Assembly (NCBI GenBank): GCA_963743885.1
Contig: CAVURJ010000002.1
Coordinates: 177,706 to 241,705, forward strand
Source of the DNA: Candidatus Moraniibacteriota bacterium
GTDB taxonomy: Bacteria; Patescibacteriota; Minisyncoccia; Moranbacterales; UBA1568
Length of the DNA: 64,000 nucleotides
Direction: 5' to 3'
Under the pieces are notes generated by a model, which was given only the letters and a program-made list of their open reading frames with translations, was not told the DNA's origin and made no database searches. The translations under genes and the position numbers were made by a program. Below, one piece after another: positions 4,545-53,900 of the stretch (its first letter is position 1; the number at the start of each line of letters is the position of its first letter).

Positions 4545-4627
4545 CTACTCAGAGTGCTATACTGGAGGCGCTGCCGGACCCCCTAACAAAGGGGACGAGG
4601 CGGCGCCTTTCTGTTTTCTGGAATTGT

Positions 4628-10453: not shown

Positions 10454-13009
10454 ATGAAAGAATCCAAGAAACACAAGGAACCATCTGCGATGATCTCTGT
10501 TCGTGGCGCCCGGACGCACAATCTCAAGAATATTTCCGTCGACATGCCGCGCAATGCCATGGTGGTCTTCACTGGGCTTTCTGGCTCGGGCAAGTCGTCG
10601 CTCGCGTTTGATACCATCTTCGCCGAGGGACAGCGCCGCTATGTCGAGTCGCTCTCCGCATATGCGCGCCAGTTCTTGAATACGATGCAGAAGCCGGATG
10701 TCGATGAGATCCTCGGCCTGTCGCCGGCCATCTCGATCGACCAGAAATCAGCAAGCCGGAATCCTCGTTCGACCGTCGCCACCATCACGGAGATCTATGA
10801 TTATCTCCGCGTGCTGTTTGCACGTCTCGGACGGCCGCACTGTCTCGAATGCGGACGCGAGATCCAGAAGCTGTCCGTCGAGGAGATGATCGAGATCGTC
10901 TCTGATAAGGTGAAGGCGACCAAGAAGAAGGAAGGCGCTCTCATCATCGCGGCACCGGTCGTGCGTGGCCGCAAGGGCGAGTATTATCAGCTGCTCTACA
11001 ATGCGCTCGGCAAGGGCTTCAGCGAGATCTTCCTCGATGGGGAGCGCAAGAGTTTGCGCGAGCGCGTCATCCTTTCTAAGAATAAGAAGCACGATATCGA
11101 TCTCATCGTCGACGAGATACCGCTTCAGGAGTTCGGGAAGTTTCCCGAGACGTCCGCTGAGCGGCTCTCGGAAGCGGTGGAGCGTTCGCTTGAGGAGAGC
11201 GAGGGTTTGGTGAATATCCGCATCGCTGGGGAGACGCTTGTACTTTCGTCCAAGTTCTCTTGCCCGTATGACGGCTTCTCCTATCCAGAGGTAGAGCCGC
11301 GGCTCTTCTCCTTCAATTCACCGTACGGTGCTTGCGAGGCGTGCAATGGTCTCGGCACCAAGCATTTCTTCGGCGATGAGCCATGTGACGTCTGCCATGG
11401 GTCGCGTCTGCGTCCGGAGGCACTCCACGTGAAGATTGGTGGGAAGAATATCGTCGAGCTGACAGCTATGACCACTGTCGAGGCCAAGGCGTTCTTTGAT
11501 GGTCTTGAGCTCTCTGAGCGCGAGCGGCAGATCGCATCCGTAGTGCTGCGCGAGGTGGGCGGCCGTCTGCAGTTCCTGCTCGATGTCGGCCTCGACTATC
11601 TCTCTCTCGGCCGCCGCGCCAATACACTCTCGGGCGGCGAAGCGCAGCGCATCCGTCTGGCATCCCAGCTTGGGTCCAAGTTGGTCGGTGCGCTCTATGT
11701 GCTCGACGAGCCGACGATCGGCCTCCACAGCCGTGACAATGACCGGCTCATCGCGACACTTCAGGCACTCCGCGATCTCGGCAATACTATCATCGTCGTC
11801 GAGCATGACGAGGATACGATCTTTGCGTCCGACTACATCGTCGATATCGGCCCTGGCGCCGGCGTGCACGGCGGCGAGGTCGTGGCCTCCGGCTATCTCG
11901 ATGATCTCCTGACAGCCAAGAAAAATACATCCGGATCACTCACGCTCGCGTACCTGCGCGGCGAAGAGCGGATCGCTATCCCGGAGAAGCGCCGTGGCAA
12001 GGAGAAAGGCGCGCTCAAGGTCCGCGGTGGCAATCTCTACAATATCAAGGGCATGGATCTCGATATCCCGCTCGGCCGCTTCGTCGCGATCACGGGCGTA
12101 TCCGGTTCGGGCAAGTCGACGCTCATGTATGAAATCGTCCACAAGAATCTCCAGGTTCGCCTCGATCGTCGCTATCGTGACAACAAGACGTTCAATTGCC
12201 AAGCATTCTCTGGATCGGAATATCTTTCCCGTGCCGTGCTCATCGATCAGAGCCCGATCGGTCGTACGCCGCGGTCCAACCCGGCGACGTATACCGGCGC
12301 GTGGACACATGTCCGCGATATGTTCGCTGCGACCGAGGAGGCCCGTGTGCGCGGCTGGAAGGCCGGCCGCTTCTCGTTCAACCGTCCCGGCGGACGCTGC
12401 GAGACGTGCGAGGGCAACGGTTTCATCGCGGTGGAGATGCACTTCTTGCCGACAGTCTATGTGGAGTGCGATGTCTGCAATGGCAAGCGCTTCACCAAAG
12501 AGACACTCGAAGTGAAGTACAAGCACAAGAGTGTCTATGACGTGCTTGAGATGACGATTGAGGAAGCGTACGCGTTCTTCTTCGATATTCCAGCGATCGC
12601 TGACCGGCTCAAGACCTTGAATGAAGTGGGCCTCGGCTACCTCAAGCTCGGCCAGAGCGCGACCACACTTTCGGGTGGCGAGGCGCAGCGCGTGAAGATC
12701 TCAAGCGAACTCTATCGCCAGCATGTCGAGCGCACTATCTACCTCCTCGACGAACCGACCATCGGGCTCCACTACGAGGATGTGAAGAAGCTTATAGAGA
12801 TCCTCGATCGCCTCGTGCAGAAGGGGAATACCGTCCTTGTCATCGAGCACAATATGGATCTCATCAAGTCTGCTGACTACGTGATCGATATCGGTCCCGA
12901 AGGCGGCGTCGGCGGCGGTCAGGTCGTCGCCTACGGCACGCCGGAAGAAGTCTCGCTCAAGAAGGCTTCGCATACGGGGATGTATCTCCGCAGAGTGCTC
13001 AAGCGCTAG
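10454..13009 (+). CDS. uvrA: excinuclease ABC subunit A paralog lacking the insertion domain (UvrA, 851 aa)
   Basis: Two ABC modules ([10 protein letters not shown] / [18 protein letters not shown] x2) and zinc-finger Cys pairs are present. Compared with the second uvrA in the window, about 100 aa are missing between [16 protein letters not shown] and CDVCHGSRL (the insertion domain). The UvrB-binding-domain-like segment is retained. Confidence 0.93.
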
Positions 13010-13013
13010 CGCG

Positions 13014-13048
13014 AGGTATCATGTATCTTGTATCAAGTAGTATGTATG
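13014..13048. promoter_or_regulatory. phased heptamer array (5 x nGTATnn), directly after the uvrA stop
   Basis: ggtatca tgtatct tgtatca agtagta tgtatgg: GTAT recurs every 7 bp. Confidence 0.6.
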
Positions 13049-13076
13049 GGGCTCACGAAACCCCTTTTTGCTTTTT
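13047..13076 (+). terminator. rho-independent terminator after uvrA
   Basis: ggggctcacgaaacccc, then tttttgcttttt. Confidence 0.65.
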
Positions 13077-13132
13077 GAATCAATTTTAAAAAAGTCTTAC
13101 GATTTACGCAATCGCGAAAATTGTCAGACTTT

Positions 13133-13167
13133 TTCATACGAGATACAAAATACTAAATACCAAATAC
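13133..13167. promoter_or_regulatory. phased heptamer array (5 x nnnATAC), inverted partner of 13014
   Basis: ttcatac gagatac aaaatac taaatac caaatac. Confidence 0.6.
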
Positions 13168-13298
13168 GGTTCGGAAGGGGCTTTACAGTGTAGAGGAATC
13201 ATGCCACAATGGGCCGTTGCGAGTCAGTCAACATACAGGCTCAAAACCGCCATCTTCCCGGGCGTCGCGCGGGAATGTACTTTGAGAAGGAGTGAATC

Positions 13299-14030
13299 AT
13301 GGCGACTGACAAGGTCGACATCGCGGAGACGAATGCTATTTCGGCTTCGCAAATGAGTGAGTTCTTCCGGCTGGCAGCCAAACACGGCAGCCATGTCAAT
13401 CGGGAAACATTTCAGATGTTTCTCGAGTGGAAGCCGCTGTTTCTTGAACCGGGTACGAACGAGTTTCTCCGTTTGGCGCGCACCATCGATGAAATACGCA
13501 TCAAGATGGGCGTGAGCGATAAACAGTTCCGTACTCTCTGGACTCCCGAAGGTCGTCCGTATCTCGAGCGTATGATCGCCGGCCTAGTTGATACGATCAT
13601 TCGTGTCGACCGTTCCATTAGACCGGTTTACCCTAATTGGGCGAAGACGATAATGCATCCGGAGCTAGAAGCGACTGGCCCGGCCGAATATGACCTTTTC
13701 GAAGTGGAGCCTTGGCTTCATGAAGGCCAGAAGAACGGTCAACACATAGCGGGCTATCAGATTTATAAGTATTTGAAGGAACAGAAGATGCTCAAGAGCT
13801 GTCTGTCCCTCCGTGACGGCGAAGAAATCCGAAAAAAAGGCCCAACCGTTTTTCAGAAGGTCTTCGGAGATAGAGAGATCCTTCTGTGGAAGTCAGTTGT
13901 ACAGCATCGCGACAACCGCATCGCTGTCCCATACATTCGCAAGGATCGCGGTGAGATGGGAGGAGACTGGCTCGGTCTCAGTGAAATCGCGTTTGGTAAA
14001 GGATCTGTGACCCCGCGTTTCACAAGGTAA
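13299..14030 (+). CDS. hypothetical protein
   Basis: 243-aa ORF with SD aaggag upstream, coding-like codon usage and no recognised domain. Flanked upstream by phased heptamer arrays. Confidence 0.5.
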   Translation: MATDKVDIAETNAISASQMSEFFRLAAKHGSHVNRETFQMFLEWKPLFLEPGTNEFLRLARTIDEIRIKMGVSDKQFRTLWTPEGRPYLERMIAGLVDTIIRVDRSIRPVYPNWAKTIMHPELEATGPAEYDLFEVEPWLHEGQKNGQHIAGYQIYKYLKEQKMLKSCLSLRDGEEIRKKGPTVFQKVFGDREILLWKSVVQHRDNRIAVPYIRKDRGEMGGDWLGLSEIAFGKGSVTPRFTR

Positions 14031-14061
14031 CACCCCAATCTCGTACTTTAGACCTCACTGG

Positions 14062-14100
14062 CCCCTGGAAACAGTAACATCGTTTCCCGGGGTCTTTTTT
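14062..14100 (+). terminator. rho-independent terminator after 13299..14030
   Basis: cccctggaaac ... gtttcccgggg 10-bp stem, then tcttttttat. Confidence 0.6.
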
Positions 14101-14132
14101 ATACATAATACGTAATACTGAATACAAGATAC
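14098..14132. promoter_or_regulatory. phased heptamer array (5 x nnAATAC)
   Basis: tttatac ataatac gtaatac tgaatac aagatac, between two terminator hairpins. Confidence 0.6.
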
Positions 14133-14135
14133 AAA

Positions 14136-14156
14136 GCGGCCTCTAGGCCGCTTTTG
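14136..14156 (+). terminator. second short terminator hairpin (gcggcctctaggccgc plus tttt)
   Basis: Perfect 6-bp GC stem with a 4-nt loop and a T-run. Confidence 0.5.
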
Positions 14157-14158
14157 GT

Positions 14159-14207
14159 GGTATACTATATACATAGTTCTTCATACGTTATACATAATAC
14201 ATAATAC
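14159..14207. promoter_or_regulatory. phased heptamer array (7 units ATAC, one degenerate) overlapping the -10 tggtatact of gene 14222
   Basis: ATAC ends at 14165, 14172, (14179 degenerate), 14186, 14193, 14200, 14207: exact 7-bp phasing. Confidence 0.6.
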
Positions 14208-14221
14208 GTAATATAACTCTT

Positions 14222-15370
14222 ATGGCTACTATTGCAGAGTACGTCTCGGAGCGCGCCAAGGCAGGCGTTCCCAAGGCAGAGATCAAGGAGGAATTGCTCT
14301 CGGTCGGCTGGACCGAAGAAGAAGCAGATGCGGCCTATCGTGATGGTGTGATCGCGCTTGGTGTCCCGGTTCCGAGCGAAGGCGACCGCCCAGCGATCGG
14401 TAAGAAGGCATCAGTCGCGGACGTTGTGCTCAATTTCTTTTCGTTCATCCTGCTCGGCATCGTCGCGACGGCGCTCGGCACGCTCTACTTCGGCATCATC
14501 AATGAAACCTTCCCGGATGCGCTTGAAGCCTATTACAGCAGCGCGGCGACCAAGAGCTCGATCCACTATGCGATCGCGGCGCTTCTCATCGGTTTCCCAC
14601 TCTACTACGCGGCGATGCGGATGTGGTTCCGCGCGTTCCGTGACAATGAGAGCCGTTCCGAGTCCAAACTCTCCAAGTGGCTGACATACCTCGTGCTCCT
14701 CGCGGCATCGGTCACAGTCGTCGGCGACCTGATCACGGTCGTCTTCACGCTCCTCGAGGGTGAGATCACGATGCGGTTTTTCTTGAAGGCCCTCACGATC
14801 CTCGTCATCGCCGGTGCTATCTTCGGCTTCTACTTCCTCGAGCGCCGGATGGTGCAGTATCGGAAGGATGTCCCGCGCTCCGTCTTTCAGCGCTTCGGCC
14901 TCTTGGTCGCCGCGCTCGTCATCCTTGGCATCGTGCTCGGCTTTTTCGCAGGCGGATCGCCGGAGACAGCCCGCAAGCGCACCCTCGATACCAAGCGCAC
15001 GAATGACCTCTCATCGCTCTCGTCTTGCATCCAGAGCTACGCGAGCGATCTCGGAGCGCTGCCAGCATCGCTCTCGGACCTCAAGCAGTCGAGTATGTAC
15101 GCCTACTGTGCACAGTACATGCGCGACCCCGAGACGCTCAATGAGTATGAGTACCGTATTGTGACCGCCTCGCGCGTCCAGGGCGCGGCCCGGGTTGGGG
15201 AGTTCGAGCTCTGCGCGGACTTCGCGCTCGCAGCATCGGATACCGATGGCACCGATGCGATGTACCGGAATGGAGGCGCGCTCTGGGATGAGCACGCTGC
15301 CGGCCGTGAATGCGATACGGCGACCGCTCAGCTCGGCACGCTCACCGTACCGTCACCACTCATCAAGTAG
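14222..15370 (+). CDS. multi-TM membrane protein (DUF5671-like)
   Basis: Soluble N-terminal domain, then about 4 TM helices, then a Cys-containing C-terminal domain. This architecture is common among CPR hypothetical membrane proteins. Confidence 0.5.
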   Translation: MATIAEYVSERAKAGVPKAEIKEELLSVGWTEEEADAAYRDGVIALGVPVPSEGDRPAIGKKASVADVVLNFFSFILLGIVATALGTLYFGIINETFPDALEAYYSSAATKSSIHYAIAALLIGFPLYYAAMRMWFRAFRDNESRSESKLSKWLTYLVLLAASVTVVGDLITVVFTLLEGEITMRFFLKALTILVIAGAIFGFYFLERRMVQYRKDVPRSVFQRFGLLVAALVILGIVLGFFAGGSPETARKRTLDTKRTNDLSSLSSCIQSYASDLGALPASLSDLKQSSMYAYCAQYMRDPETLNEYEYRIVTASRVQGAARVGEFELCADFALAASDTDGTDAMYRNGGALWDEHAAGRECDTATAQLGTLTVPSPLIK

Positions 15371-29531: not shown

Positions 29532-29677
29532 TAGGGGGAGAGAAAACCATCGGCAAGCGCCGATGGTTTTTGCACATTCTGATGAGCACTCGCGTAGCAG
29601 GATTTCGCAGGGTGAATATTGTGCTATTTTTTGCTTGATGTATACTATAGTATGTAAGTATAGTAAACATTAAAATT

Positions 29678-31820: not shown

Positions 31821-32102
31821 ATGATTGATCAGGTTTCTTTTATCCTCGCGCTCTTCGCTGCTATCAATCTTGTGGCTTTTTTCGCGATGCTGCTCGACAA
31901 GCAGCGTTCGAAGCGATCCGGGGCGGAGCGGATCTCTGAAGGGATGCTCTTCTTCATGGCGGCGATGTTCGGGAGCGTCGGGGTGTATCTCGGCATGTTT
32001 GTATTTCGGCATAAGACGCGCCAGTGGCATTTCATCATCGGTATTCCCGCACTCATCGCCGAGCAGCTCGCGCTCCTGTATCTGGTATACTGGTATCTAT
32101 AA
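31821..32102 (+). CDS. DUF1294 membrane protein
   Basis: LDKQRSKRSGAERISEGMLFFMAAMFGSVGVYLGMFVFRHKTRQW matches DUF1294. Confidence 0.78.
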   Translation: MIDQVSFILALFAAINLVAFFAMLLDKQRSKRSGAERISEGMLFFMAAMFGSVGVYLGMFVFRHKTRQWHFIIGIPALIAEQLALLYLVYWYL

Positions 32103-32877: not shown

Positions 32878-33213
32878 ATGGCGACGAAAGTCTCGACGAT
32901 CGAATATATCGAGGATCAGCTGGCAGAGGTGCCGGAGGTGCGGTCGCGCAAGATGTTTGGCGAGTACGCGCTTTATGTCGGGGACAAGGTGGTGGCACTC
33001 GTTTGCGACGATACGCTCTATGTGAAGATCACAGAGCCGGGCCGGGCATATGTCGGGGATCGGTATGAGGAGGGGACAGCGTATCCGGGAGCCAAGCCGT
33101 CGATGCTCGTCGATGCCGATCTGATCGAGGACCGTGAGTGGCTCACCGACCTCATCCGTATCACGGCGGAAGCGCTACCGATGCTCAAGTCCAAGAAGCG
33201 GAAAGAATCGTAG
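32878..33213 (+). CDS. TfoX/Sxy N-terminal domain protein
   Basis: RKMFGEYALYVGDKVVALVCDDTLYVK is the TfoX_N pattern. Confidence 0.68.
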   Translation: MATKVSTIEYIEDQLAEVPEVRSRKMFGEYALYVGDKVVALVCDDTLYVKITEPGRAYVGDRYEEGTAYPGAKPSMLVDADLIEDREWLTDLIRITAEALPMLKSKKRKES

Positions 33214-45369: not shown

Positions 45370-46839
45370 ATGCCGAAGCTCTGGGAAAAATCAGTAACGC
45401 TCGAAGCGTTTAAGAAAAAAAACAGGCTACCGGAAGTGCCGGGAGTGTATTTTTTCTTGGGAAAGAAGAAGGAGGTCCTCTATATCGGCAAGGCGACGAT
45501 TCTTCGTGACCGGGTGAAGAGCTATTTCTCGCAGGACATCATGGAGACGCGCGGGCCGAAGATTGCTCTTATGCTCGGGAAGATCCGGTCCATCGCGTAT
45601 CGGAAGACTGATTCGGTGCTTGAGGCGCTCATCCTCGAGACCAATCTCATCAAGGAGCATCAGCCGTCGTACAATACCGACCAGAAGGATGATAAGAGCT
45701 ACAATCATGTCGTCATCACGGATGAACTGTTCCCGCGCGTCTTGGTCATAAGAGGAAGAGATTTAGAAAAATATCCTCCTGTCATTCCCGCGAAGGCGGG
45801 AATCCAGAAAAAGAAATCCTGGATCCCGGGTCAAGCCCGGGATGACATAAGAATAAAATATTCATTCGGGCCGTTCCCATCGGGTGGCGGATTGCGTGAA
45901 GCGATGAAGATCGTGCGGAGGCTTTTCCCATATCGGGATACGTGCGTGCCAACGGACAGTCAACAGTCAACAGCTAACAGTCAACAGCGAACAGAGAACA
46001 ATCAGCAGTCAACAGCGAACAGAGAACAATCAGCAGTCAACAGTCAGCAGCTAATAGTTAGCAATGAACAAAAAGCAGTCATCAGTCAACGAAGAAAAAA
46101 GGCCGTCCCTCAAGCGTGTTTTAATAGGCAGATTGGTCTGTGTCCGGGAGTATGTACTGGTGAGATATCCGCTAAGGAATATGCACGGATAATCAATCAT
46201 ATCCGGCTGTTCTTCGAAGGACGGAAAAGTATGCTGGTGAAGCGGCTCGAGCGCGAGATGAAGGCGGCTGCCAAGGCGCTCGAGTTTGAGCGGGCTGGCG
46301 AGATCAAGAAGACGCTTTTCGGTCTGCAGCATATCCAGGATATGGCGCTTGTGAAGAATGACGAACGACTCACGACTCACGACTCACGACAGGGAGTGCG
46401 GATTGAAGCGTATGATGTGGCGCATCTCATGGGAGAGGCGTCGGTCGGTGTGATGACGGTCGTTTCCGGAAGTTATGCGGATACCGATGAGTATCGGCAG
46501 TTCAGGTTGCGAGGGGATCATAAGGGCAATGATCTCGCAGCGCTCGAGGAAATATTGTTCCGCCGCCTGAAGCATCCTGAGTGGGGACGGCCTGATGTCA
46601 TTGCGGTTGATGGATCATTCCTCCAGCTCGGCGTCGCTGAGCGCCTTTTTGACGGACTTCCTGAGAAGCCGCTTCTGGTTGGCGTTGTGAAGGACGCGCG
46701 ACACAAGGCGAAGGAGATCATCGGGTTGCCGGCGGGCTTCGCTCGGCTTGAGACTGATATATTGCTCGCGAATAACGAGGCACACCGCTTCGCTATCGCT
46801 TTTCATCGCAAGCGTCGCGGGAAGGAATTCTTGAAGTAA
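45370..46839 (+). CDS. uvrC: excinuclease ABC subunit C (UvrC), short form with two in-frame repeat insertions
   Basis: GIY-YIG domain (GVYFFLGKKKEVLYIGKA), Cys motif FPYRDTC ... CFNRQIGLCPGVC, UVR domain (EMKAAAKALEFERAGEIKK) and the RNase H-like endonuclease domain (RIEAYDVAHLMGEA). The C-terminal HhH2 domain is absent or short. Confidence 0.92.
   Translation: MPKLWEKSVTLEAFKKKNRLPEVPGVYFFLGKKKEVLYIGKATILRDRVKSYFSQDIMETRGPKIALMLGKIRSIAYRKTDSVLEALILETNLIKEHQPSYNTDQKDDKSYNHVVITDELFPRVLVIRGRDLEKYPPVIPAKAGIQKKKSWIPGQARDDIRIKYSFGPFPSGGGLREAMKIVRRLFPYRDTCVPTDSQQSTANSQQRTENNQQSTANREQSAVNSQQLIVSNEQKAVISQRRKKAVPQACFNRQIGLCPGVCTGEISAKEYARIINHIRLFFEGRKSMLVKRLEREMKAAAKALEFERAGEIKKTLFGLQHIQDMALVKNDERLTTHDSRQGVRIEAYDVAHLMGEASVGVMTVVSGSYADTDEYRQFRLRGDHKGNDLAALEEILFRRLKHPEWGRPDVIAVDGSFLQLGVAERLFDGLPEKPLLVGVVKDARHKAKEIIGLPAGFARLETDILLANNEAHRFAIAFHRKRRGKEFLK
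45781..45846 (+). repeat. 66-bp palindromic element inserted in-frame in uvrC (translates as VIPAKAGIQKKKSWIPGQARDD)
   Basis: gtcattcccgcgaaggcgggaatccag ... ctggatcccgggtcaagcccgggatgac: two inverted similar halves, each itself a hairpin. It replaces the roughly 8-aa loop that E. coli UvrC has between the GIY-YIG domain and FGPFP. Confidence 0.65.
45957..46095 (+). repeat. tandem repeat block inside uvrC (28-bp unit x2 perfect, plus degenerate cagtcaacag sub-repeats)
   Basis: cagtcaacagcgaacagagaacaatcag occurs twice in tandem at about 45978-46033. The block is read as QQSTANSQQRTENNQQSTANREQSAVNSQQ and expands the loop inside the UvrC Cys motif from about 11 to about 57 aa. Confidence 0.8.
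46366..46388 (+). repeat. heptamer tandem repeat (cgactca)x3 inside uvrC
   Basis: cgactcacgactcacgactcacgac encodes TTHDSR. Confidence 0.8.
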
Positions 46840-47037: not shown

Positions 47038-47305
47038 TTTGTATTTTGTAGAGACTTCATTCTGAAGCCTTTCCCGAGGCCAGAATCTTCCGGAGAAACT
47101 CTGGAGTCCGAGCGGGCACGGTTCCGAAGGAGAGCAAGGACGGAAGGTAATGGGACCGCCACGCCGGGGCGGGACCATGATTCTCCGGAAGGTTGCTGGT
47201 CCGAGTGGGAAGGCGAGTCGCGGCAGGAGTCTTTACAGCATCTTAAAAAGAGAGTACACTGGAAAGCAATTCTGCGTTTTTCCATCCTTCCAAGAACAAC
47301 GCCCT

Positions 47306-50104
47306 ATGTCAGGCAAGAAATCGGTGATTGAGGTACGCGGCGCGCGGGTCAACAATCTGAAGAATATAGACGTCGACATACCGCGCGATGCGCTGGTTGT
47401 CATCACTGGGCTTTCCGGTTCCGGCAAGTCATCCCTGGCTTTTGATACTCTCTTTGCGGAAGCGAATCGGCGATATGTCGAGTCGCTTTCTTCGTATGCG
47501 CGCAATTTCCTCGATGGTTTTGAGAAGCCGGACGTCGATGCGATTCGCAATCTCTCGCCGGCCATCTCGATTGATCAGAAGAGCGTGTCGCGTTCTCCGC
47601 GTTCGACGGTCGGTACCATGACCGAAGTCTATGACTATCTGCGCGTGCTCTTTGCCAAGTTGGGCGTGCCGCATTGCCCGAAGTGCGGCAATCTGCTCGC
47701 GCGCAAGAGTGTCCGCGAGATCCTCGAGGAGATCCTCCTCTTTCCTGACAAGACACCGCTCGTCTTCCTCGCTGAGAGTCCGCTTTTCGTCGGTAAGACG
47801 GAAAAGGAAGCGCTCCAGCTCGTGAACGGCTGGGGATACGTCAAGGCATGTGTACGCGGCGAGATCATGCCGATCGCCGAGGCTATGGCAGCTGCATCAT
47901 CCGAGTCGGCTGACGGTGTCATGGCAGTGATCGACCGGCTCGTGCTCGATCGTGAGCGCCCAGACAAGGAGCGCATCCTCGATTCGCTCCAGACAGCGTT
48001 TCAGGTGGGCCAGGGGACGCTCCTCTTGCGCGTGAATGGCGATGAGGAGATACGGAGCTACAACGAGGAATACCGCTGCGAGGCGTGCGGCATCCATTTG
48101 CCTGAGTTCACTCCGAGTCATTTTTCATTCAACAATCCAGAAGGCGCGTGCGCGAAGTGCGCGGGCTTGGGCGTGACGCTCGAGTTTGATCCGGAGCTCG
48201 TCATCCCGAACAAGAATCTATCGCTATCTGAAGGAGCGATCCGTCCGTGGAGCAAGATGAATGGCGACCGTCCTGGGGGCAACGGGCATATGGCTCAGCT
48301 GCGCGACCTCGCGAAGCGTATGAAGTTCTCGCTCGATGATCCGATCAAGAAGCTTTCGACGAAGCAGTATGCCGCCGTGCTCCATGGCGAGACAAATGGA
48401 AAGGAAGATGCCTTCCCGGGTGTCATCGCGCTCCTCGAGCGCAAGTATCGCGAGACGCGCTCCGATCATCTGCGTGCCGAGATTGAAGAGTATATGCTGA
48501 CCAAGGTCTGTCCGGAATGCAGGGGGAGGCGCCTCTCGAAGGCGTCGCTCGCCGTGCGTCTTGGTGGGTATTCCATCGATGATCTCGTGCAGCTTTCTGC
48601 TGAGAATTTCCTCTCAGTGTTGCCGGCGTTCCGCACAGCGCTTTTGCCACAGGGGGAGAAGCGCCTCATCGAGCCGCTCTTCCGTGAGATGGATGTGCGT
48701 ATGAAGGCAGTGGAGAAGGTGGGTCTCGGTTACCTTGAGCTCTGTCGGAGTGCCGATACACTCTCGGGTGGCGAGGCACAGCGCATCCGACTGTCGGTCC
48801 AGATGAAGTCTGGTCTTTCTGGCATCATCTATGTTCTTGATGAACCGTCGGTCGGGCTCCACAGCCGCGATACGGAGCGGCTCATCAATGCACTTGAAGA
48901 CTTGCGCGGTGCGAACAACTCGCTCGTCGTCGTCGAGCACGATGTCGCGATCATGCGCCGGGCCGACTATATCATCGACATGGGGCCAGGCGCTGGTAGC
49001 GAGGGTGGCGAGGTCATCTTTGCCGGTACGCCGGACAAGCTCCTCCGCTCGAAGCTTCTGACTGGCCAGTATCTTTCCGGCAAGCGCCAGGTTTCTGATA
49101 AGAAGAAGACGCGCAAGGGGAGCGGTGATTTCATCTCCGTCATCGGGGCGTCCGAGCACAATCTGAAGGATGTCGACGTGAAGCTGCCGCTCGGCATGAT
49201 GGTTGCGGTGTCGGGTGTGTCTGGTTCCGGCAAGTCATCGCTCGTGCACGATATTCTCGCCCGGGCGCTCTCCAAGCATTTCTATCATGCCAAGACTGAG
49301 CCGGGAGCCCACAAGAAGATCGAGGGTCTGGGCAATATTGATAAAGTGATCTCCGTCAATCAGGATCCGATCGGCCGCACGCCTCGCTCCAATGCGGCGA
49401 CGTATACGGGCGTCTTCAGCCTGATTCGTGATCTGTATGCAGCGACCTCAGAAGCGGAGCGCGAGAAGTATTCCGCGAGCCATTTCTCCTTCAATATGCG
49501 CGGCGGACGTTGCGAGGCGTGTCAGGGCGGCGGGCTCAAGAAGATCGAGATGTATCTCCTGCCGGATGTCTATGTGCCGTGCGAGGTCTGCCAGGGGACG
49601 CGCTACAACGCGAAGACGCTCTCTATCGAGTATCGCGGTATGAATATCGCTCAGGTGCTCCGTATGACCGTGTCCGAGGCGCGGCGGTTCTTCCTCGACC
49701 AACCGATGATCGAGGAGAAGCTCCGAGTGCTCGAGGAAGTCGGTCTCGGATACCTCGTTCTCGGCCAGAGTGCGACCAATCTTTCCGGCGGTGAGGCGCA
49801 GCGTATCAAGCTTGCGACCGAGCTTGCCCGCAAGTCGACCGGCAAGACACTCTATATATTGGATGAGCCGACGATCGGTCTGCACTTCGAGGATGTACGC
49901 CGGCTCTTGGAGGTGCTTGAGGCACTCGTCGACAAGGGCAATACTGTGCTCGTGGTTGAACACAACATTGACGTCATCAGCGCTGCGGACTGGGTGATCG
50001 AGCTCGGTCCTGATGGTGGTGAGAAGGGTGGCGAGCTAGTCTTCTCTGGACCGCCGGAAAGACTGAAGGCTTGCAAGAAGAGCTTTACCTCAAAATACTT
50101 GTAA
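47306..50104 (+). CDS. uvrA: excinuclease ABC subunit A (UvrA, full-length 932 aa)
   Basis: Start at [20 protein letters not shown] (ORF 47150 trimmed). Both ABC modules, the UvrB-binding domain and the insertion domain (about 110 aa between GLG and [10 protein letters not shown]) are present. Confidence 0.95.
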
Positions 50105-50217
50105 GAATTTTTAATTTTATAATTTTAAATTTTTAAAGAATCTCTGAATTTTCAATATTTAAACATTCAGTAATTCTGGAATTATTTTAAAATTAGAAAT
50201 TTAAAATTTAAAATTTC
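50105..50217. promoter_or_regulatory. AT-rich 7-bp periodic tracts (aatttt / aaattta units) between uvrA and 50223
   Basis: aaattta aaattta aaatttc perfect at about 50197-50217; aatttt starts at 50106, 50113, 50121, 50128. Confidence 0.45.
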
Positions 50218-50222
50218 CGGTA

Positions 50223-51143: not shown

Positions 51144-51223
51144 CGTGACGGTTCAGCGGCTGCTTCGGCCGCTTTTTTGTGGTATACTATCACAAGGAGG
51201 AAATATCAAAATACAAACGGTGT

Positions 51224-52449: not shown

Positions 52450-52484
52450 GTATAGCGTATATCGTATCAAGTATCTCGTATGGA
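52450..52484. promoter_or_regulatory. phased heptamer array (5 x GTATnnn) directly after the pilC stop
   Basis: gtatagc gtatatc gtatcaa gtatctc gtatgga. Confidence 0.65.
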
Positions 52485-52505: not shown

Positions 52506-53900
52506 ATGTCTTTTCTTATACAAAATACAAAATACAAAATACAGGATACGGGACTGAAGGGTTTCACGCTCATCGAGACGCTCGTGTTTCTCTTTGTCTT
52601 TTCATTGGTTTCAATCGTCTTTTATCAGGCGTATGCAACTGGAATACGGACGATTATCGAGACGAAGAACCGTCTCGGCGCGACAGCGCTTGCCAATCAG
52701 AAGATGGAGATAATCCGGAGTATCGCGTATGACGATATCGGTACGACAAGCGGCATTCCGAGCGGGACGCTCGCTCAAGATGAGACAATCAGTGTCAATA
52801 CGACCCGGTATCAGGTCCATACTTATGTCGGCCATGTCGATGACTTGTTTGATGGAGCGCTCGCTACCGGTACTGATAGCGTGCCGAATGATTACAAGCG
52901 CGTACGTCTAGAGGTCTCATGGGGTTCGGGCGGAACTGATCAGCAAGTCGTGATTTTCGGCAGATTCTCTCCGAATGGTATCGAGACGCCGGCTGGTGGC
53001 GGTATACTTTCTATCAACGTGCTTGATGCTTCAGGATCAGGAGTATCTGGTGCATCGGTACGTATCAGAAATCCATCTGAGTCGGTGGATTTGACTGCGA
53101 TTTCTGACCTGACCGGAAACGTCACTTCGGTCGGTGCCCCGGCTGGATCGCAGAATTATGAGCTGACTGTCTCCAAATCAGGCTATTATGGCGCGCAGAC
53201 CTATGCACCGACAGCATCGTTTACGCCAGTGGACATCCACGCCTCGGTTGTTGATGCTGCACTCAACCAGGCGACAATCGTGATGGATCGGTACGCTGAT
53301 ATCAGTCTTCATTCCGTGGATTCTTTTGGTACCGATGTTCCAGGGGTTGATATGGATATCGAAGGCGGTCGTCATTTTGGTACGAATGTCACGGGTGCAC
53401 CTCCCGTAGTATCAGAGACGTATAGCTTTTCGGACAGTATCACGACGGGTAGTTCCGGCGAGGAGGATATTCAGGATCAGAGCTACGGCACGTATACGGT
53501 GAGCAGTGTGTCTAAATCAGGTTATACCTTTTATAAGCTCTCTCCAGACGGGCCGGCCTATAATCAGCTTTCTGCCTTGGCTGGCGTGAACAATACTGTC
53601 TCGCTCGTTATGCTCGATAATGCCGTGAGTTCGCTCTGGGTAAAGGTGAATGATAAGAGCGTTCCGCCAGATCCTGTTTCGGGAGCATCCGTGCATCTTT
53701 CGGAGAGCATTTCAGGATATGATGCGACCGTCACGACGGATGCGTTCGGCTATGCATTTTTCCCGACGGCGCTGCCGGCGCTTGTCGCGGGAACGTATGA
53801 TCTTGAAGTAAGTGCGACTGGATTTGATACGGATACCGGAACGGTTTCGATCGGTGGAGCAGCGCTTGTCACGGAAACCGTATCGCTTCAAGCCGAATAG
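52506..53900 (+). CDS. large type IV pilin-like protein (prepilin N-terminal methylation motif)
   Basis: G/FTLIETLVFLFVFSLVS is a class III signal/N-methylation site. 464 aa, Thr/Ser/Gly/Val-rich beta-like body. The annotated 5-prime end is built from ATAC heptamer repeats, so the start is uncertain. Confidence 0.62.
   Translation: MSFLIQNTKYKIQDTGLKGFTLIETLVFLFVFSLVSIVFYQAYATGIRTIIETKNRLGATALANQKMEIIRSIAYDDIGTTSGIPSGTLAQDETISVNTTRYQVHTYVGHVDDLFDGALATGTDSVPNDYKRVRLEVSWGSGGTDQQVVIFGRFSPNGIETPAGGGILSINVLDASGSGVSGASVRIRNPSESVDLTAISDLTGNVTSVGAPAGSQNYELTVSKSGYYGAQTYAPTASFTPVDIHASVVDAALNQATIVMDRYADISLHSVDSFGTDVPGVDMDIEGGRHFGTNVTGAPPVVSETYSFSDSITTGSSGEEDIQDQSYGTYTVSSVSKSGYTFYKLSPDGPAYNQLSALAGVNNTVSLVMLDNAVSSLWVKVNDKSVPPDPVSGASVHLSESISGYDATVTTDAFGYAFFPTALPALVAGTYDLEVSATGFDTDTGTVSIGGAALVTETVSLQAE
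52514..52548. promoter_or_regulatory. phased heptamer array (5 x nnnATAC), inverted partner, inside the annotated 5-prime end of the pilin gene
   Basis: cttatac aaaatac aaaatac aaaatac aggatac. In frame 52506 it translates as IQNTKYKIQDT. Confidence 0.65.

Follow-up and report, generated by a model that had tools for sequence, protein, structure and literature searches.

A conserved family of five-unit GTAT heptad arrays at gene boundaries of Patescibacteria and its possible role as a directional transcription signal

Facing arrays of five 7-nt units each, one with GTAT and one with ATAC as the repeated core, occupy the boundary between a uvrA-like gene and a gene for a 243-aa protein, and this observation is real. 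Judged by comparison of genomes, the arrays are a conserved gene-boundary repeat family of ultra-small Patescibacteria (CPR), mostly uncultured bacteria in which the marking and control of transcription units are almost unstudied. They constitute a short sequence signal that is under clear purifying selection, obeys strict rules of orientation relative to gene ends, is common to many classes of the phylum and is even written into conserved proteins. Our preferred reading, to which we give a rough probability of only 0.3, is that they may be an orientation-dependent transcription boundary signal that is read via its repeated core. Literature searches found no description of heptamer or tandem repeats in Patescibacteria or CPR.

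The uvrA-like ORF ends with a TAG stop codon at 13007-13009 of the window (the whole 64-kb stretch of DNA analysed here), and the first base of the GTAT-sense array lies 6 nt past it (Table 1). Direct reading finds five phase-7 slots, of which four have the exact core (GTAT at 13016, 13023, 13030 and 13044) and one, at 13037, reads GTAG. An additional GTAT at 13040 is out of phase with this row. The five ATAC cores of the facing array (13136, 13143, 13150, 13157 and 13164) are all exact and equally in phase 7, and the frames of the original prediction, 13014-13048 and 13133-13167, were right to within 1-2 nt. Folded alone, the GTAT row is unstructured (-3.1 kcal/mol) and the ATAC row gives 0 kcal/mol. 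Between the two arrays, tightly enclosed, lie a decayed terminator and a second, strong hairpin: the last GTAT unit directly abuts the first hairpin, while the ATAC row begins 1 nt past the T-tract and stops 14 bp 5' of the -35 hexamer of the next gene. It had been placed before the next start, but lies about 130 nt 5' of that codon, just upstream of the -35.

Table 1. Arrays, hairpins and promoter discussed in the text (window coordinates; a dot marks an undefined strand)
Feature	Position	Strand	Basis
GTAT-sense heptad array, (GTATnnn)x5	13016-13047	+	sequence reading, pattern scan, TRF
Decayed intrinsic terminator: GGGG/CCCC stem, then TTTTTGCTTTTTG	13048-13076	+	folding, L121 comparison
Strong 19-bp hairpin, A6/T5 flanks	13089-13134	.	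folding
ATAC-sense heptad array, (nnnATAC)x5 (GTAT on - strand)	13136-13167	-	sequence reading, pattern scan, TRF
Promoter of 243-aa gene: TTTACA, 17-nt spacer, TGcCACAAT (extended -10)	13182-13210	+	consensus scan
ATAC-sense array, 5 units, directly after T-tract of terminator T1 (14060-14100)	14101-14132	-	pattern scan
ATAC-sense array, 8 slots, 6 exact	14162-14214	-	pattern scan
Inverted heptamer arrays, other core (AATTTTT... / ...AAAATTT)	50106-50221	.	TRF, self-similarity scan
GTAT-sense array, 5 units, starts 5 nt after pilC (T2SSF) stop	52450-52481	+	pattern scan
ATAC-sense array, 5 units, inside prepilin leader ORF	52518-52549	-	pattern scan

Both the intrinsic terminator (13047-13076) and the second hairpin that had been seen between the arrays are there, but the one named as terminator is the weaker of the two. 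Its hairpin (13048-13064) is a weak 4-bp GC stem with a T-tract that folds no better than shuffles (-5.8 kcal/mol, z -0.1), against -19 kcal/mol and z -6.0 for 13089-13134, which with its A6/T5 flanks looks like a bidirectional terminator. In L121, a syntenic relative, the orthologue of the first hairpin is strong (-16.7 kcal/mol, with a 6-bp GC stem and a GCGA loop), and the second hairpin falls within a 62-nt stretch (about 13067-13128) that is a gap in the alignment; this stretch is evidently an insertion that, with the second terminator, landed inside the array bracket. GC-rich stem-loops followed by a U-tract were found at 13089-13134, at 14060-14100 and at 2096-2118 of L121, but folding reveals none in the heptad arrays themselves. 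The 243-aa gene has a good Shine-Dalgarno sequence (GAAGGAG) and a promoter of which both hexamers, but not the intervening spacer, are kept in L121. Rfam searches of the whole window at gathering thresholds and of 12950-14300 at E<=10 returned chance-level matches only, and a tRNA/tmRNA scan of the sequence found none.

Lag 7 is the sole enriched periodicity in the window: an unbiased self-similarity scan detected 9 lag-7 regions, whereas the remaining lags between 4 and 14 gave 0-2 each and shuffled sequences about 0. The pattern GTATN3GTATN3GTAT (<=1 mismatch) has 20 matches against 0.10 expected, a number that 0/100 shuffles reach, and TRF called both uvrA-locus arrays with period 7. Altogether the window holds six GTAT/ATAC arrays (about 1 per 10 kb) in three intergenic regions, with GTATYWN as the unit consensus and GTAT as its core. 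In both species, the ATAC arrays of the uvrA-locus spacer (IG1) and behind T1 in the next array-bearing spacer (IG2) begin 1 nt past the terminator T-tract. The second array of IG2 starts at a -10 box and covers +1 to +50, its first unit being the TATACT box of the extended -10 sequence TGGTATACT (14158-14166), and it ends 7 nt before the ATG at 14222, which is not preceded by a Shine-Dalgarno sequence.

Array, terminator and inverted array had been proposed as a punctuation shared between these loci, and this scheme stands at the uvrA locus, where L121 keeps it, but fails at the pilin locus, where no terminator separates the arrays. The punctuation there is not identical: what lies in the 31-36-nt gap is the Shine-Dalgarno sequence with the ATG, and the prepilin leader ORF itself contains the ATAC array, which encodes the IQNTKYKIQDT of MSFLIQNTKYKIQDTGLKG followed by FTLIE. 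A third locus (14101-14214) does not follow the scheme either, given that its two arrays share one orientation, which is also kept in L121. A remnant of the former start region (GGATGCGAAA) sits between the pilin-locus arrays, so that these did not arrive as one block, and no good -10 box was found 3' of their GTAT row in this window. An architecture related to the GTAT arrays is present in the spacer behind uvrA2 (50106-50221), with arms close to the stop codon and the next ATG; its cores differ, yet the two arms co-vary in L130 and L129 across the three genomes compared. Further lag-7 repeats with non-GTAT cores in the same genomes are AACAGnn x13 in the uvrC ORF, with a perfect 28-nt higher-order repeat, and ACGACTC x3.7.

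All four arrays at the uvrA/243-aa/DUF5671 junctions are kept in L121, including 13136-13167 as judged by alignment, and the GTAT array of the uvrA locus is conserved unit for unit down to the GTAG in slot 4. Across IG1, 38/40 core positions but only 14/24 spacer positions are identical between the two species (Fisher p 5e-4), with 4-fold synonymous sites at 0.51-0.61 identity. Both pilin-locus arrays are likewise kept in two relatives (L129 and L130), and in these three genomes 40/40 core nucleotides are invariant (20/20 in 52450-52481) compared to 5/12 spacer positions of the GTAT array (Fisher p 2.4e-4) and 4-fold sites that are 0.33-0.59 identical. Spacers therefore diverge at about the synonymous rate while the cores are near-invariant, which shows purifying selection on the 4-nt cores only rather than AT drift. 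Recurring arrays of conserved phase at gene boundaries had been claimed at the outset, with AT-rich low-complexity drift as the alternative, and the claim is borne out: drift is rejected because both phase and cores survive realignment.

Whether the distance between arrays is conserved in multiples of the helical turn had been raised as a test, and this was not the case. It differs between the two species at the uvrA locus (88 vs 25 nt), measures 36/32/31 nt in the three genomes with the pilin locus and ranges unphased from -2 to 117 nt elsewhere, and helical phasing was rejected on the grounds of these gaps and of the differences between orthologues. Copy number changes by whole units, with 14162-14214 comprising 8 slots in the window against 5 in L121, i.e., the same array minus exactly three units (21 nt), while other arrays stay at 5 units; the L121 counterpart of 14101-14132 occupies the same place with four units. 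Overall, the arrays hold position, orientation and unit number in species with 59-80% identical proteins. The unit of the pilin leader changes in concert (AAAATAC, AAAATTC, AAAAATC), and one relative (L131) has no arrays at all. The arrays are not part of the 243-aa gene family because its distant homologues (L122, L125-L128) lack them; a metagenome scan with the 243-aa protein found only two short loci, both array-free.

Arrays with variable spacers prevail in CPR genomes, at 25 vs 14, where they nearly always consist of five units, and are outnumbered elsewhere (15 vs 83). Unit number is near five in 36 of the 40 variable-spacer arrays, a sharp size that suggests a reader of defined size. 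Variable-spacer CPR arrays have their edges within a few bases of gene ends, and the GTAT-sense ones start 0-8 nt past stop codons. Facing pairs show GTAT before ATAC in 20 cases and the opposite order in 0, and unpaired arrays are GTAT-sense next to stops and ATAC-sense next to starts. Arrays that lie between a promoter and its start codon are all ATAC-sense; most start-adjacent cases read ATAC-N6-8-ATG without Shine-Dalgarno (modal spacing N7), and the last unit is often (T/A/G)ATACT, spaced as would be expected if the transcript were leaderless. Single arrays within ORFs are ATAC-sense in 8/9 cases. In-ORF arrays include three in TsaD and others in MurB, MiaA, SerRS and the pilin leader; most of these 32-35-nt arrays take the place of a loop (+2 to +6 aa), and the periodic core is all that they have in common. 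Array flanks are commonly A-rich 5' and U-rich 3', units show lineage "dialects", and the arrays are dispersed over unrelated genes. Copies share their cores only, and inner segments of -2 to 117 nt are unrelated. An origin as MITE or from phages was rejected on the grounds of 0 matches of the GTAT/ATAC pair pattern in IMG/VR and of the lack of inner sequence common to the copies.

For the cell, this pattern might translate into a mechanism in which the effect on transcription, a protein as the reader and recognition of RNA rather than DNA are what we infer. The element would be a row of about five 4-nt GTAT boxes at 7-nt pitch with free spacers, placed such that anything leaving a gene meets a GTAT-sense row first. 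An oligomeric factor would then read the repeated core, one step per heptad; in the simplest version, it would read nascent ribosome-free RNA as (GUAUnnn)5, and the GUAU array would serve for loading or stopping and so reinforce the bracketed terminators in a way reminiscent of rut and Rho. We count in favor of this boundary-signal model the position 0-8 nt past the stop codon, where RNA first becomes ribosome-free, and the unstructured nature of single arrays. The ATAC sense would be permissive and act only on antisense or incoming transcripts, which would explain its sole use between promoter and start codon and its near-exclusive use in ORFs, and the 20:0 ratio would follow if a GTAT-sense row by a start codon silenced its gene. 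At the uvrA locus, the transcript would run from GUAUx5 into the hairpin(s) and a U-tract, and the ATAC row would shield the downstream promoter region from leftward transcription. We regard as unlikely a more far-reaching version, a directional "gene-boundary code" of five-box GTAT rows at which an oligomeric factor would stop or destabilize transcripts in one orientation, with genes fenced on both sides and essential ORFs seeded with ATAC rows (IQNTKYK-like loops) acting on antisense RNA only.

Several observations speak against such a boundary signal. A search for an RHH, HTH or cold-shock reader among 20 small ORFs of the window found none. The GTAT row of the pilin locus lies between pilC and the ATG with no good -10 box after it, so that a strong stop would silence the pilin unless leaky. 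The bias within ORFs could also be explained by coding, with (ATACAAA)n giving the hydrophilic IQNTKYK and GTAT-sense units often carrying stop codons, and the intergenic polarity would also follow from a GTAT...ATAC palindrome that fills a short spacer. The modal ATAC-N7-ATG without Shine-Dalgarno points to a role in initiation instead of termination, and the co-varying non-GTAT arms of the uvrA2 spacer favor pairing or copying over a GTAT-specific reader. As to rut sites, the array is unstructured and lies directly behind the stop codon, but contains <=1 C per 7 nt plus one G, and it is unlike a known Rho site because it is not C-rich.

On double-stranded DNA, the rows could be operator arrays for a protein with one subunit per 7-bp heptad, i.e., a global regulator or nucleoid protein bound near promoters and terminators and without directional effect on RNA polymerase, which we find rather improbable. 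Selection on a 4-bp core with free 3-bp spacers, a unit number fixed at about five and the use of both orientations, which are the same site to a dsDNA reader, would all fit such a protein, as would arrays that adjoin or cover promoters (13136-13167 by the -35; 14162-14214 from the -10 on), and the 20:0 orientation recalls the preference of omega for converging over diverging heptads. It fits less well that the gap between rows is unphased and variable (-2 to 117 bp), that arrays lie at unrelated genes and in essential ORFs (TsaD, MurB, MiaA) where tight binding would obstruct transcription, and that no RHH/HTH candidate is among 20 small ORFs of the window; nor does this model predict how unpaired arrays are oriented to gene ends. 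Equally open to doubt is pairing of the facing rows as arms of an RNA hairpin or DNA cruciform that would extend or replace the intrinsic terminator and serve as fail-safe bidirectional terminator, 3'-end stabilizer or RNase III site in REP/BIME-like fashion. Here, 15/18 pairs form much more stable folds than shuffled sequences (z -4 to -9.7; -45.8 vs -21.9 kcal/mol for the uvrA-locus pair), the register is identical in the window and L121 (G1-A3, G2-A2, G3-A1), the common A-rich 5' and U-rich 3' flanks agree, and the arms of the uvrA2 spacer stay complementary while their core changes completely across three genomes. However, spacers are no more complementary in register than out of register, so that pairing follows from the shared unit consensus, and the pilin pair, with z -0.7, does not fold although its cores are invariant in three genomes; hairpin covariation was rejected on these two counts. 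Unpaired, same-sense (14101, 14162) and in-ORF arrays have no partner, terminator-stopped transcripts at the uvrA locus would never include the ATAC arm, and the 20:0 orientation is left unexplained, as both orders give the same helix.

That the arrays are functionless, slippage-born heptanucleotide repeats, spread or kept by concerted evolution and tolerated where harmless (in spacers, leader peptides and surface loops, similar to Rickettsia palindromic elements), seems distinctly unlikely. The other-core lag-7 repeats of the same genomes (uvrC AACAGnn x13, ACGACTC x3.7), the concerted change of the pilin-leader unit, the difference of exactly three units in the IG2 array and a relative without any arrays (L131) are in its favor, and, according to Mrazek 2007 as cited in PMC4679880, no class of long simple-sequence repeats is more frequent in prokaryotes than heptamers. 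Against it, cores alone are conserved in non-coding arrays at near-saturated synonymous divergence, the heterogeneous spacers bear no sign of recent slippage, the five-unit size is sharp compared to the long tail of perfect microsatellites, and neither the 20:0 orientation nor the retention of position, orientation and unit number at 59-80% protein identity is expected. Very unlikely in our view is an initiation element, with the ATAC array as an SD-less leader and/or a stack of -10-like boxes recruiting ribosomes or RNA polymerase and the GTAT rows as its inverted partner. Most start-adjacent cases do show ATAC-N6-8-ATG without Shine-Dalgarno, often with (T/A/G)ATACT as the last unit at leaderless-transcript distance, the genome's extended -10 consensus (TGGTATACT) forms array unit 1 at 14158, and a closely similar layout has been described (PMC4679880). 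Yet 13136-13167 lies upstream of the -35, about 130 nt from the ATG of a gene with a good GAAGGAG, partnerless post-stop GTAT rows and in-ORF arrays are unexplained, and ATAC is rarely followed by T in the window, leaving units without the -7 T of a -10 box, which led us to reject -10 box copies as a general explanation. Least plausible by far is a DNA-uptake signal for the type IV pilus/Com machinery, comparable to Neisseria DUS or Haemophilus USS and spread by uptake bias and recombination. Arrays in both spacers and ORFs, inverted pairs by terminators, unit "dialects" that differ between lineages, the presence of pilus genes and a TfoX_N protein in the window and the natural competence of Saccharibacteria (PMC10633639) are compatible with it. 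But six arrays in 64 kb (about 1 per 10 kb) is a low density compared to known uptake signals, which are single motifs of 9-12 nt present roughly once per kb in both orientations; moreover, the arrays are periodic, gene-relative polarity and fixed five units are unexplained, and the Saccharibacteria transformation paper mentions no uptake sequence (PMC10633639).

Should the arrays indeed be a directional stop or insulator, or the operator of a global protein, they would point to a new factor. Such a factor should be findable by phylogenetic profiling, given that array-rich and array-free sister genomes exist (GCA_964384235.1 / GCA_016182385.1), and it could be tested in Saccharibacteria, which are now genetically tractable. 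If the arrays were tolerated slippage repeats, a new reason would have to be sought for why only their cores are conserved. In practical terms, they explain unusual "IQNTKYK" stretches inserted in annotated proteins, and start-codon assignments by gene callers can go wrong because of them.

Among known systems, REP/BIME elements and Neisseria Correia or DUS pairs are high-copy intergenic inverted repeats by gene ends and terminators that are transcribed into hairpins, with proposed roles in termination, mRNA stability and supercoiling. The arrays resemble REP/BIME elements as intergenic inverted repeats at gene ends and terminators, but REPs are single GC-rich palindromes of 20-40 bp with a GTAG/CGTC tag and a RAYT transposase, whereas the arms described here are periodic, AT-rich, conserved in their cores only and also found singly. 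Single arrays fold with 0 to -3 kcal/mol, and palindromy arises only between two arrays. Rickettsia palindromic elements (RPE) are 100-150-bp copies of one sequence family that add a peptide segment in genes. They share with our arrays the short in-frame repeats in conserved genes, at surface loops or linkers, that are kept by descendants; the 32-35-nt GTAT/ATAC arrays, however, in most cases replace a loop (+2 to +6 aa) and have only the periodic core in common.

Direct repeats of the heptamer TAACTGA are known from marine Beggiatoaceae, some Cyanobacteria and Bacteroidetes, where intergenic rows of 2-6 copies lie, mostly in "forward" orientation, a few nt 5' of SD-less start codons (MacGregor 2015, PMC4679880). 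Some occur in ORFs, the genes have no common function, and inverted sets are nearly absent, with 169 direct sets and one indirect (PMC4679880). The likeness thus consists in short intergenic heptamer rows near SD-less starts, some of them in ORFs, but TAACTGA repeats the whole 7-mer exactly while the GTAT arrays fix only 4/7 positions. Facing pairs as a rule (20:0), GTAT rows behind stop codons and a different host phylum further set the latter apart. As in heptanucleotide simple-sequence repeats, their 7-nt units are arranged head to tail, but the whole 7-mer is not identical, as spacers vary within arrays.

The RHH protein omega of plasmid pSM19035 binds 7-bp heptads and ParG binds tetramer boxes in 8-bp units at parH of TP228, with one dimer per unit; these sites combine a short core and degenerate remainder with direct and inverted rows, one preferred orientation and promoter overlap. 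Omega sites and GTAT arrays both consist of adjoining 7-bp heptads that occur in direct as well as inverted orientation. The heptad consensus of omega is WATCACW, with an ATCAC core instead of GTAT, and the GTAT arrays differ in being chromosomal and dispersed over unrelated genes and ORFs, with variable gaps, a polarity tied to gene ends and no cognate RHH gene among 20 small ORFs of the window. On RNA, HutP of Bacillus recognizes NAG-N4, repeated every 7 nt in two separate sets that flank a terminator, and HutP and TRAP are ring oligomers that bind one core per subunit and control termination. A conserved core with free spacers is common to these sites and the GTAT arrays, as is the 7-nt period in the case of HutP. 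Their sets lie in the same sense on one RNA, an arrangement found here at 14101/14162, while the arrays of the uvrA and pilin loci are inverted, and they control one regulated operon compared to the many array loci of Patescibacteria.

The spacer between a uvrA-like gene and the next gene, which encodes a 243-aa protein, carries two arrays of boxes on a 7-nt pitch that face each other: one GTAT-sense, i.e., (GTATnnn)n on the forward strand, and one in the reverse-complementary ATAC-sense. This pair was the core of the original prediction, and the sequence confirms it. Four of the five GTAT cores are exact with GTAG in slot 4, and an additional out-of-phase GTAT is found at 13040. The segment between the arrays holds two hairpins, of which the second has the appearance of a bidirectional terminator judging from its flanks, while single arrays folded alone are unstructured (0 to -3 kcal/mol). 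The 243-aa gene has its promoter past the ATAC row and then a well-conserved leader with GAAGGAG ahead of the ATG at 13299, so that this row lies directly upstream of the -35 element rather than adjoining the start codon.

Arrays and neighboring features in the window
Feature	Position	Strand or sense	Description
uvrA-like ORF	10454-13009	+	ABC_tran and UvrA_inter domains; stop TAG 13007-13009
Array GTATcatGTATcttGTATcaaGTAGtatGTAT	13016-13047	+, GTAT-sense	Five slots, 7-nt pitch; starts six bases past the uvrA-like stop
First hairpin GGGGctcacgaaaCCCC and T-tract	13048-13076		Weak: -5.8 kcal/mol, shuffles equally good
Second hairpin	13089-13134		Strong: 19 bp, -19 kcal/mol, z -6; A6 and T5 flanks
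Array ATACgagATACaaaATACtaaATACcaaATAC	13136-13167	ATAC-sense, read on +	Five of five cores exact
Promoter of 243-aa gene	13182-13187 (TTTACA), 13202-13210 (TGcCACAAT)		17-nt spacer
Arrays	14101, 14162	Both ATAC-sense	Between 243-aa gene and DUF5671 gene
Array	52450	GTAT-sense	pilC/pilin junction
Array	52518	ATAC-sense	pilC/pilin junction

The window contains six arrays with GTAT/ATAC cores. A search for three units that allows one mismatch gives 20 matches, where 0.10 would be expected. In a sequence-blind self-similarity scan, lag 7 had nine regions, every other lag between 4 and 14 had 0-2, and shuffles had about none. Homologues of the flanking proteins belong to Moranbacteria and other Patescibacteria, and the DUF5671 and pilus genes are consistent with that assignment.

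What is conserved in these arrays is the cores. A relative from a separate sample (L121), whose 243-aa protein is ca. 60% identical, has the same order of uvrA, 243-aa, DUF5671, and Pyr_redox genes and retains all four arrays at equal positions and orientation, including the slot-4 GTAG. In the uvrA spacer, the two genomes agree at 38 of 40 nucleotides in the cores but at 14 of 24 between them (Fisher p 5e-4). Identity at four-fold synonymous sites of the neighboring genes is 0.51-0.61, and the spacers thus drift at approximately the neutral rate, whereas the cores do not. The 62 nt holding the window's strong second hairpin are absent from this relative, and in both genomes the final GTAT adjoins the first hairpin and the ATAC row starts one base past a terminator T-tract. 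The same one-base distance separates the terminator at 14060-14100 from the first array ahead of the DUF5671 gene in both genomes, and the second array there differs between them by exactly three units. At the pilin locus, both five-unit rows are retained in L130 (pilin 78% identical) and L129 (60%), with all 40 core nucleotides invariant across three genomes even though identity at four-fold sites is just 0.33-0.59. Of the 12 spacer positions in the GTAT row, which is non-coding, 5 do not vary (Fisher p 2.4e-4).

A scan for five exact ATAC heptads with one genome per species returned at least 120 loci. Among the matches listed, at least 25 come from Patescibacteria of many classes (Saccharibacteria, Moraniibacteriota, Yanofsky-, Wildermuth-, Nealson-, Roizman-, Woese-, Gottesman-, Berkel-, and Peribacteria), and those outside are mostly perfect microsatellites. 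Among these listed matches, the ratio of variable-spacer to homogeneous arrays is 25:14 in CPR as opposed to 15:83 outside it (p 5e-8), and 36 of the 40 variable-spacer arrays have exactly five units, while perfect repeats show a long tail of lengths. Typical facing five-unit pairs also occur in MAGs labelled "uncultured Gammaproteobacteria" (L016 1864-1949 and L028 3728-3806); either the element extends beyond Patescibacteria or these bins are mislabelled.

Placement follows strict rules, with positions relative to gene ends judged by simple ORF calls. Across all loci collected, neighboring arrays run GTAT then ATAC in 20 cases and the reverse in none. Spacers of tandem, convergent, and divergent genes all contain pairs. 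GTAT-sense rows start 0-8 nt past a stop codon or precede the start of an opposite-strand gene; ATAC-sense rows end 2-16 nt ahead of a gene boundary, most commonly 6-8 nt ahead of the ATG with no intervening Shine-Dalgarno. On the gene's own strand, this gives (ATACnnn)5 - ca. 7 nt - ATG ... stop - ca. 5 nt - (GTATnnn)5. The idea that the arrays punctuate genes holds in spirit and at the uvrA spacer, though not in the detail proposed for the pilin locus, and helical phasing of the inter-array distance proved wrong.

Arrays are also written into genes. A Wildermuthbacteria TsaD has three, encoding FQNTQYQIRNTKYF, YKIQNTKYKIRL, and YQIQNTTYKIQF, which replace surface loops and add 2-6 aa relative to PDB 6nak. 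Others lie in MurB, MiaA, a DegT aminotransferase, glycosyltransferases, and DUF2298, and one of the two "Gammaproteobacteria" pairs sits in full inside the SerRS coiled-coil arm. Of nine single arrays within ORFs, eight have the ATAC sense; the window's prepilin leader, MSFLIQNTKYKIQDTGLKG followed by FTLIE, is such an ATAC-sense array.

The syntenic relative L131 (GCA_016182385.1) lacks arrays and has 4 nt between the pilC stop and an ATG, with AGGAGGATGCGAAAAACACTGAAAGG as the likely start region. Since GGATGCGAAA persists between the window's two pilin arrays, the rows arose flanking an old start and not as one block. Its whole 21 kb (GC 0.44) is practically free of lag-7 rows, whatever their type, and has much shorter intergenic spacers. 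For phylogenetic profiling, L131 is a natural control without arrays. More distant pilins (57% identical) have a leader row of a different heptamer, AAAATTC or AAAAATC, and no upstream partner. The spacer of a second uvrA gene carries inverted heptamer rows in three genomes (50106-50221; L130 7525-7695; L129 7632-7726) with cores unrelated between genomes and arms complementary within each (AATTTTT/AAAATTT, TAATTTC/GAAATTA, nTAGGCA/TGCCTnn). Within uvrC, an in-frame row of 13 AACAGnn units (45950-46051) with a perfect 28-nt higher-order repeat adds ca. 45 aa (SQQSTANSQQRTENNQQ...) between conserved Cys motifs and is joined by a second in-frame row, ACGACTC x3.7 (46348-46396); uvrC of L129 has a different internal row (AATCAAG). 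This lineage thus makes heptamer rows readily, in agreement with a report (Mrazek 2007, as cited in PMC4679880) that among the long simple repeats of prokaryotes, heptamers are the most frequent. Judged by its sequence conservation, the GTAT type is held by selection above this background. The GTAT/ATAC element is a real, selected, and phylum-wide repeat.

Several features of the surrounding genes are worth recording. Ahead of the 243-aa gene, the promoter together with the 5' leader (13168-13298) is >90% identical to L121, varying only in the -35/-10 spacer, compared to 67% nucleotide identity in the coding sequence. This leader may be an RNA with structure or a regulatory role; no Rfam family matches it, and shuffles fold equally well (z -0.5). 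The 243-aa protein (13299-14030) is without a Pfam domain. At another locus (L125 290-2781), a homologue adjoins a bAvd gene and a reverse transcriptase (RVT_1) in the layout of a diversity-generating retroelement (DGR), and several homologues have conserved sequence downstream of the stop codon; the family may be DGR target proteins. Of two UvrA paralogues, a UvrA DNA-binding domain matches the 984-aa one (47150-50104) and not the 851-aa one (10454-13009), which may be a class II UvrA-like protein.

The extended -10 element TGGTATACT, probably this genome's principal type of promoter, is found in five forward-strand copies closely upstream of genes (8102, 14158, 27990, 32083, 51180; also at 4555 and 22027), usually without a recognizable -35, and TGCTATACT in one. 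It includes the palindrome GTATAC, i.e., both array cores overlapping, and at 14158 forms the first unit of an ATAC array that reaches 7 nt before the ATG at 14222, with no Shine-Dalgarno. Short irregular GTATC/GTATA repeats of period 7-10 nt, e.g., GTATCtgGTATACtgGTATC, surround two promoters (32070-32100 and 29640-29665) and may be arrays in the making or in decay. In the stretch 51179-51215, the longest pilC ORF begins with GTG 51179, within a TGGTATACT promoter that itself follows a terminator hairpin; a later AAGGAGG suggests that the true start lies downstream. Besides pilC, pilin-like genes, and a probable pilM (annotated in the syntenic loci L129-L131 only), the window encodes a small protein (32878-33213) whose TfoX_N domain is shared with the competence regulator TfoX/Sxy.

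As to what the arrays do, we tentatively rank an orientation-dependent boundary first, at a probability of about 0.3. GTAT-sense rows would be the first met by anything leaving a gene and would serve as stop or loading signals backing up the terminators that they bracket; ATAC-sense rows would be permissive and hence the sole orientation allowed between a promoter and its gene. Selection confined to the cores, together with a unit number fixed at five, argues for a reader stepping once per heptad, and the strict polarity of pairs, unpaired arrays, and in-ORF arrays argues for an effect that depends on the direction of transcription. However, four things weaken the boundary model: a GTAT-sense row sits between pilC and the start of the pilin, the in-ORF orientation bias has a coding explanation, ATAC-N7-ATG spacing is exact, and rows with other cores have co-varying arms. 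Among the rivals, we regard tolerated slippage repeats as an improbable account, and that the arrays act as a leader or -10 initiation element seems quite improbable to us.

A DNA-bound omega-like protein is a rather unlikely reader. It is similarly doubtful that the arrays serve as hairpin arms: pairs do fold as long imperfect hairpins (z -4 to -9.7), but placing the arms in register does not improve the complementarity of their spacers, the pilin pair stays unfolded despite its invariant cores, unpaired and same-sense arrays occur, and the ATAC arm is never within terminated transcripts at the uvrA spacer. Pairing is thus a partial explanation at most. A role as DNA uptake signal appears very improbable.

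We found no description of these arrays in Patescibacteria in the literature. Among described systems, the TAACTGA heptamer repeat of Beggiatoaceae comes closest. It shares the 7-nt period and the place ahead of Shine-Dalgarno-less start codons, but there the entire unit is repeated and inverted sets are nearly absent. With omega/ParG heptad operators and HutP/TRAP RNA arrays, the GTAT arrays further share a core-plus-spacer layout, with REP/BIME the occurrence as inverted repeats adjoining terminators, and with Rickettsia palindromic elements the presence within genes, yet they differ from each of these systems in at least one of its defining features.
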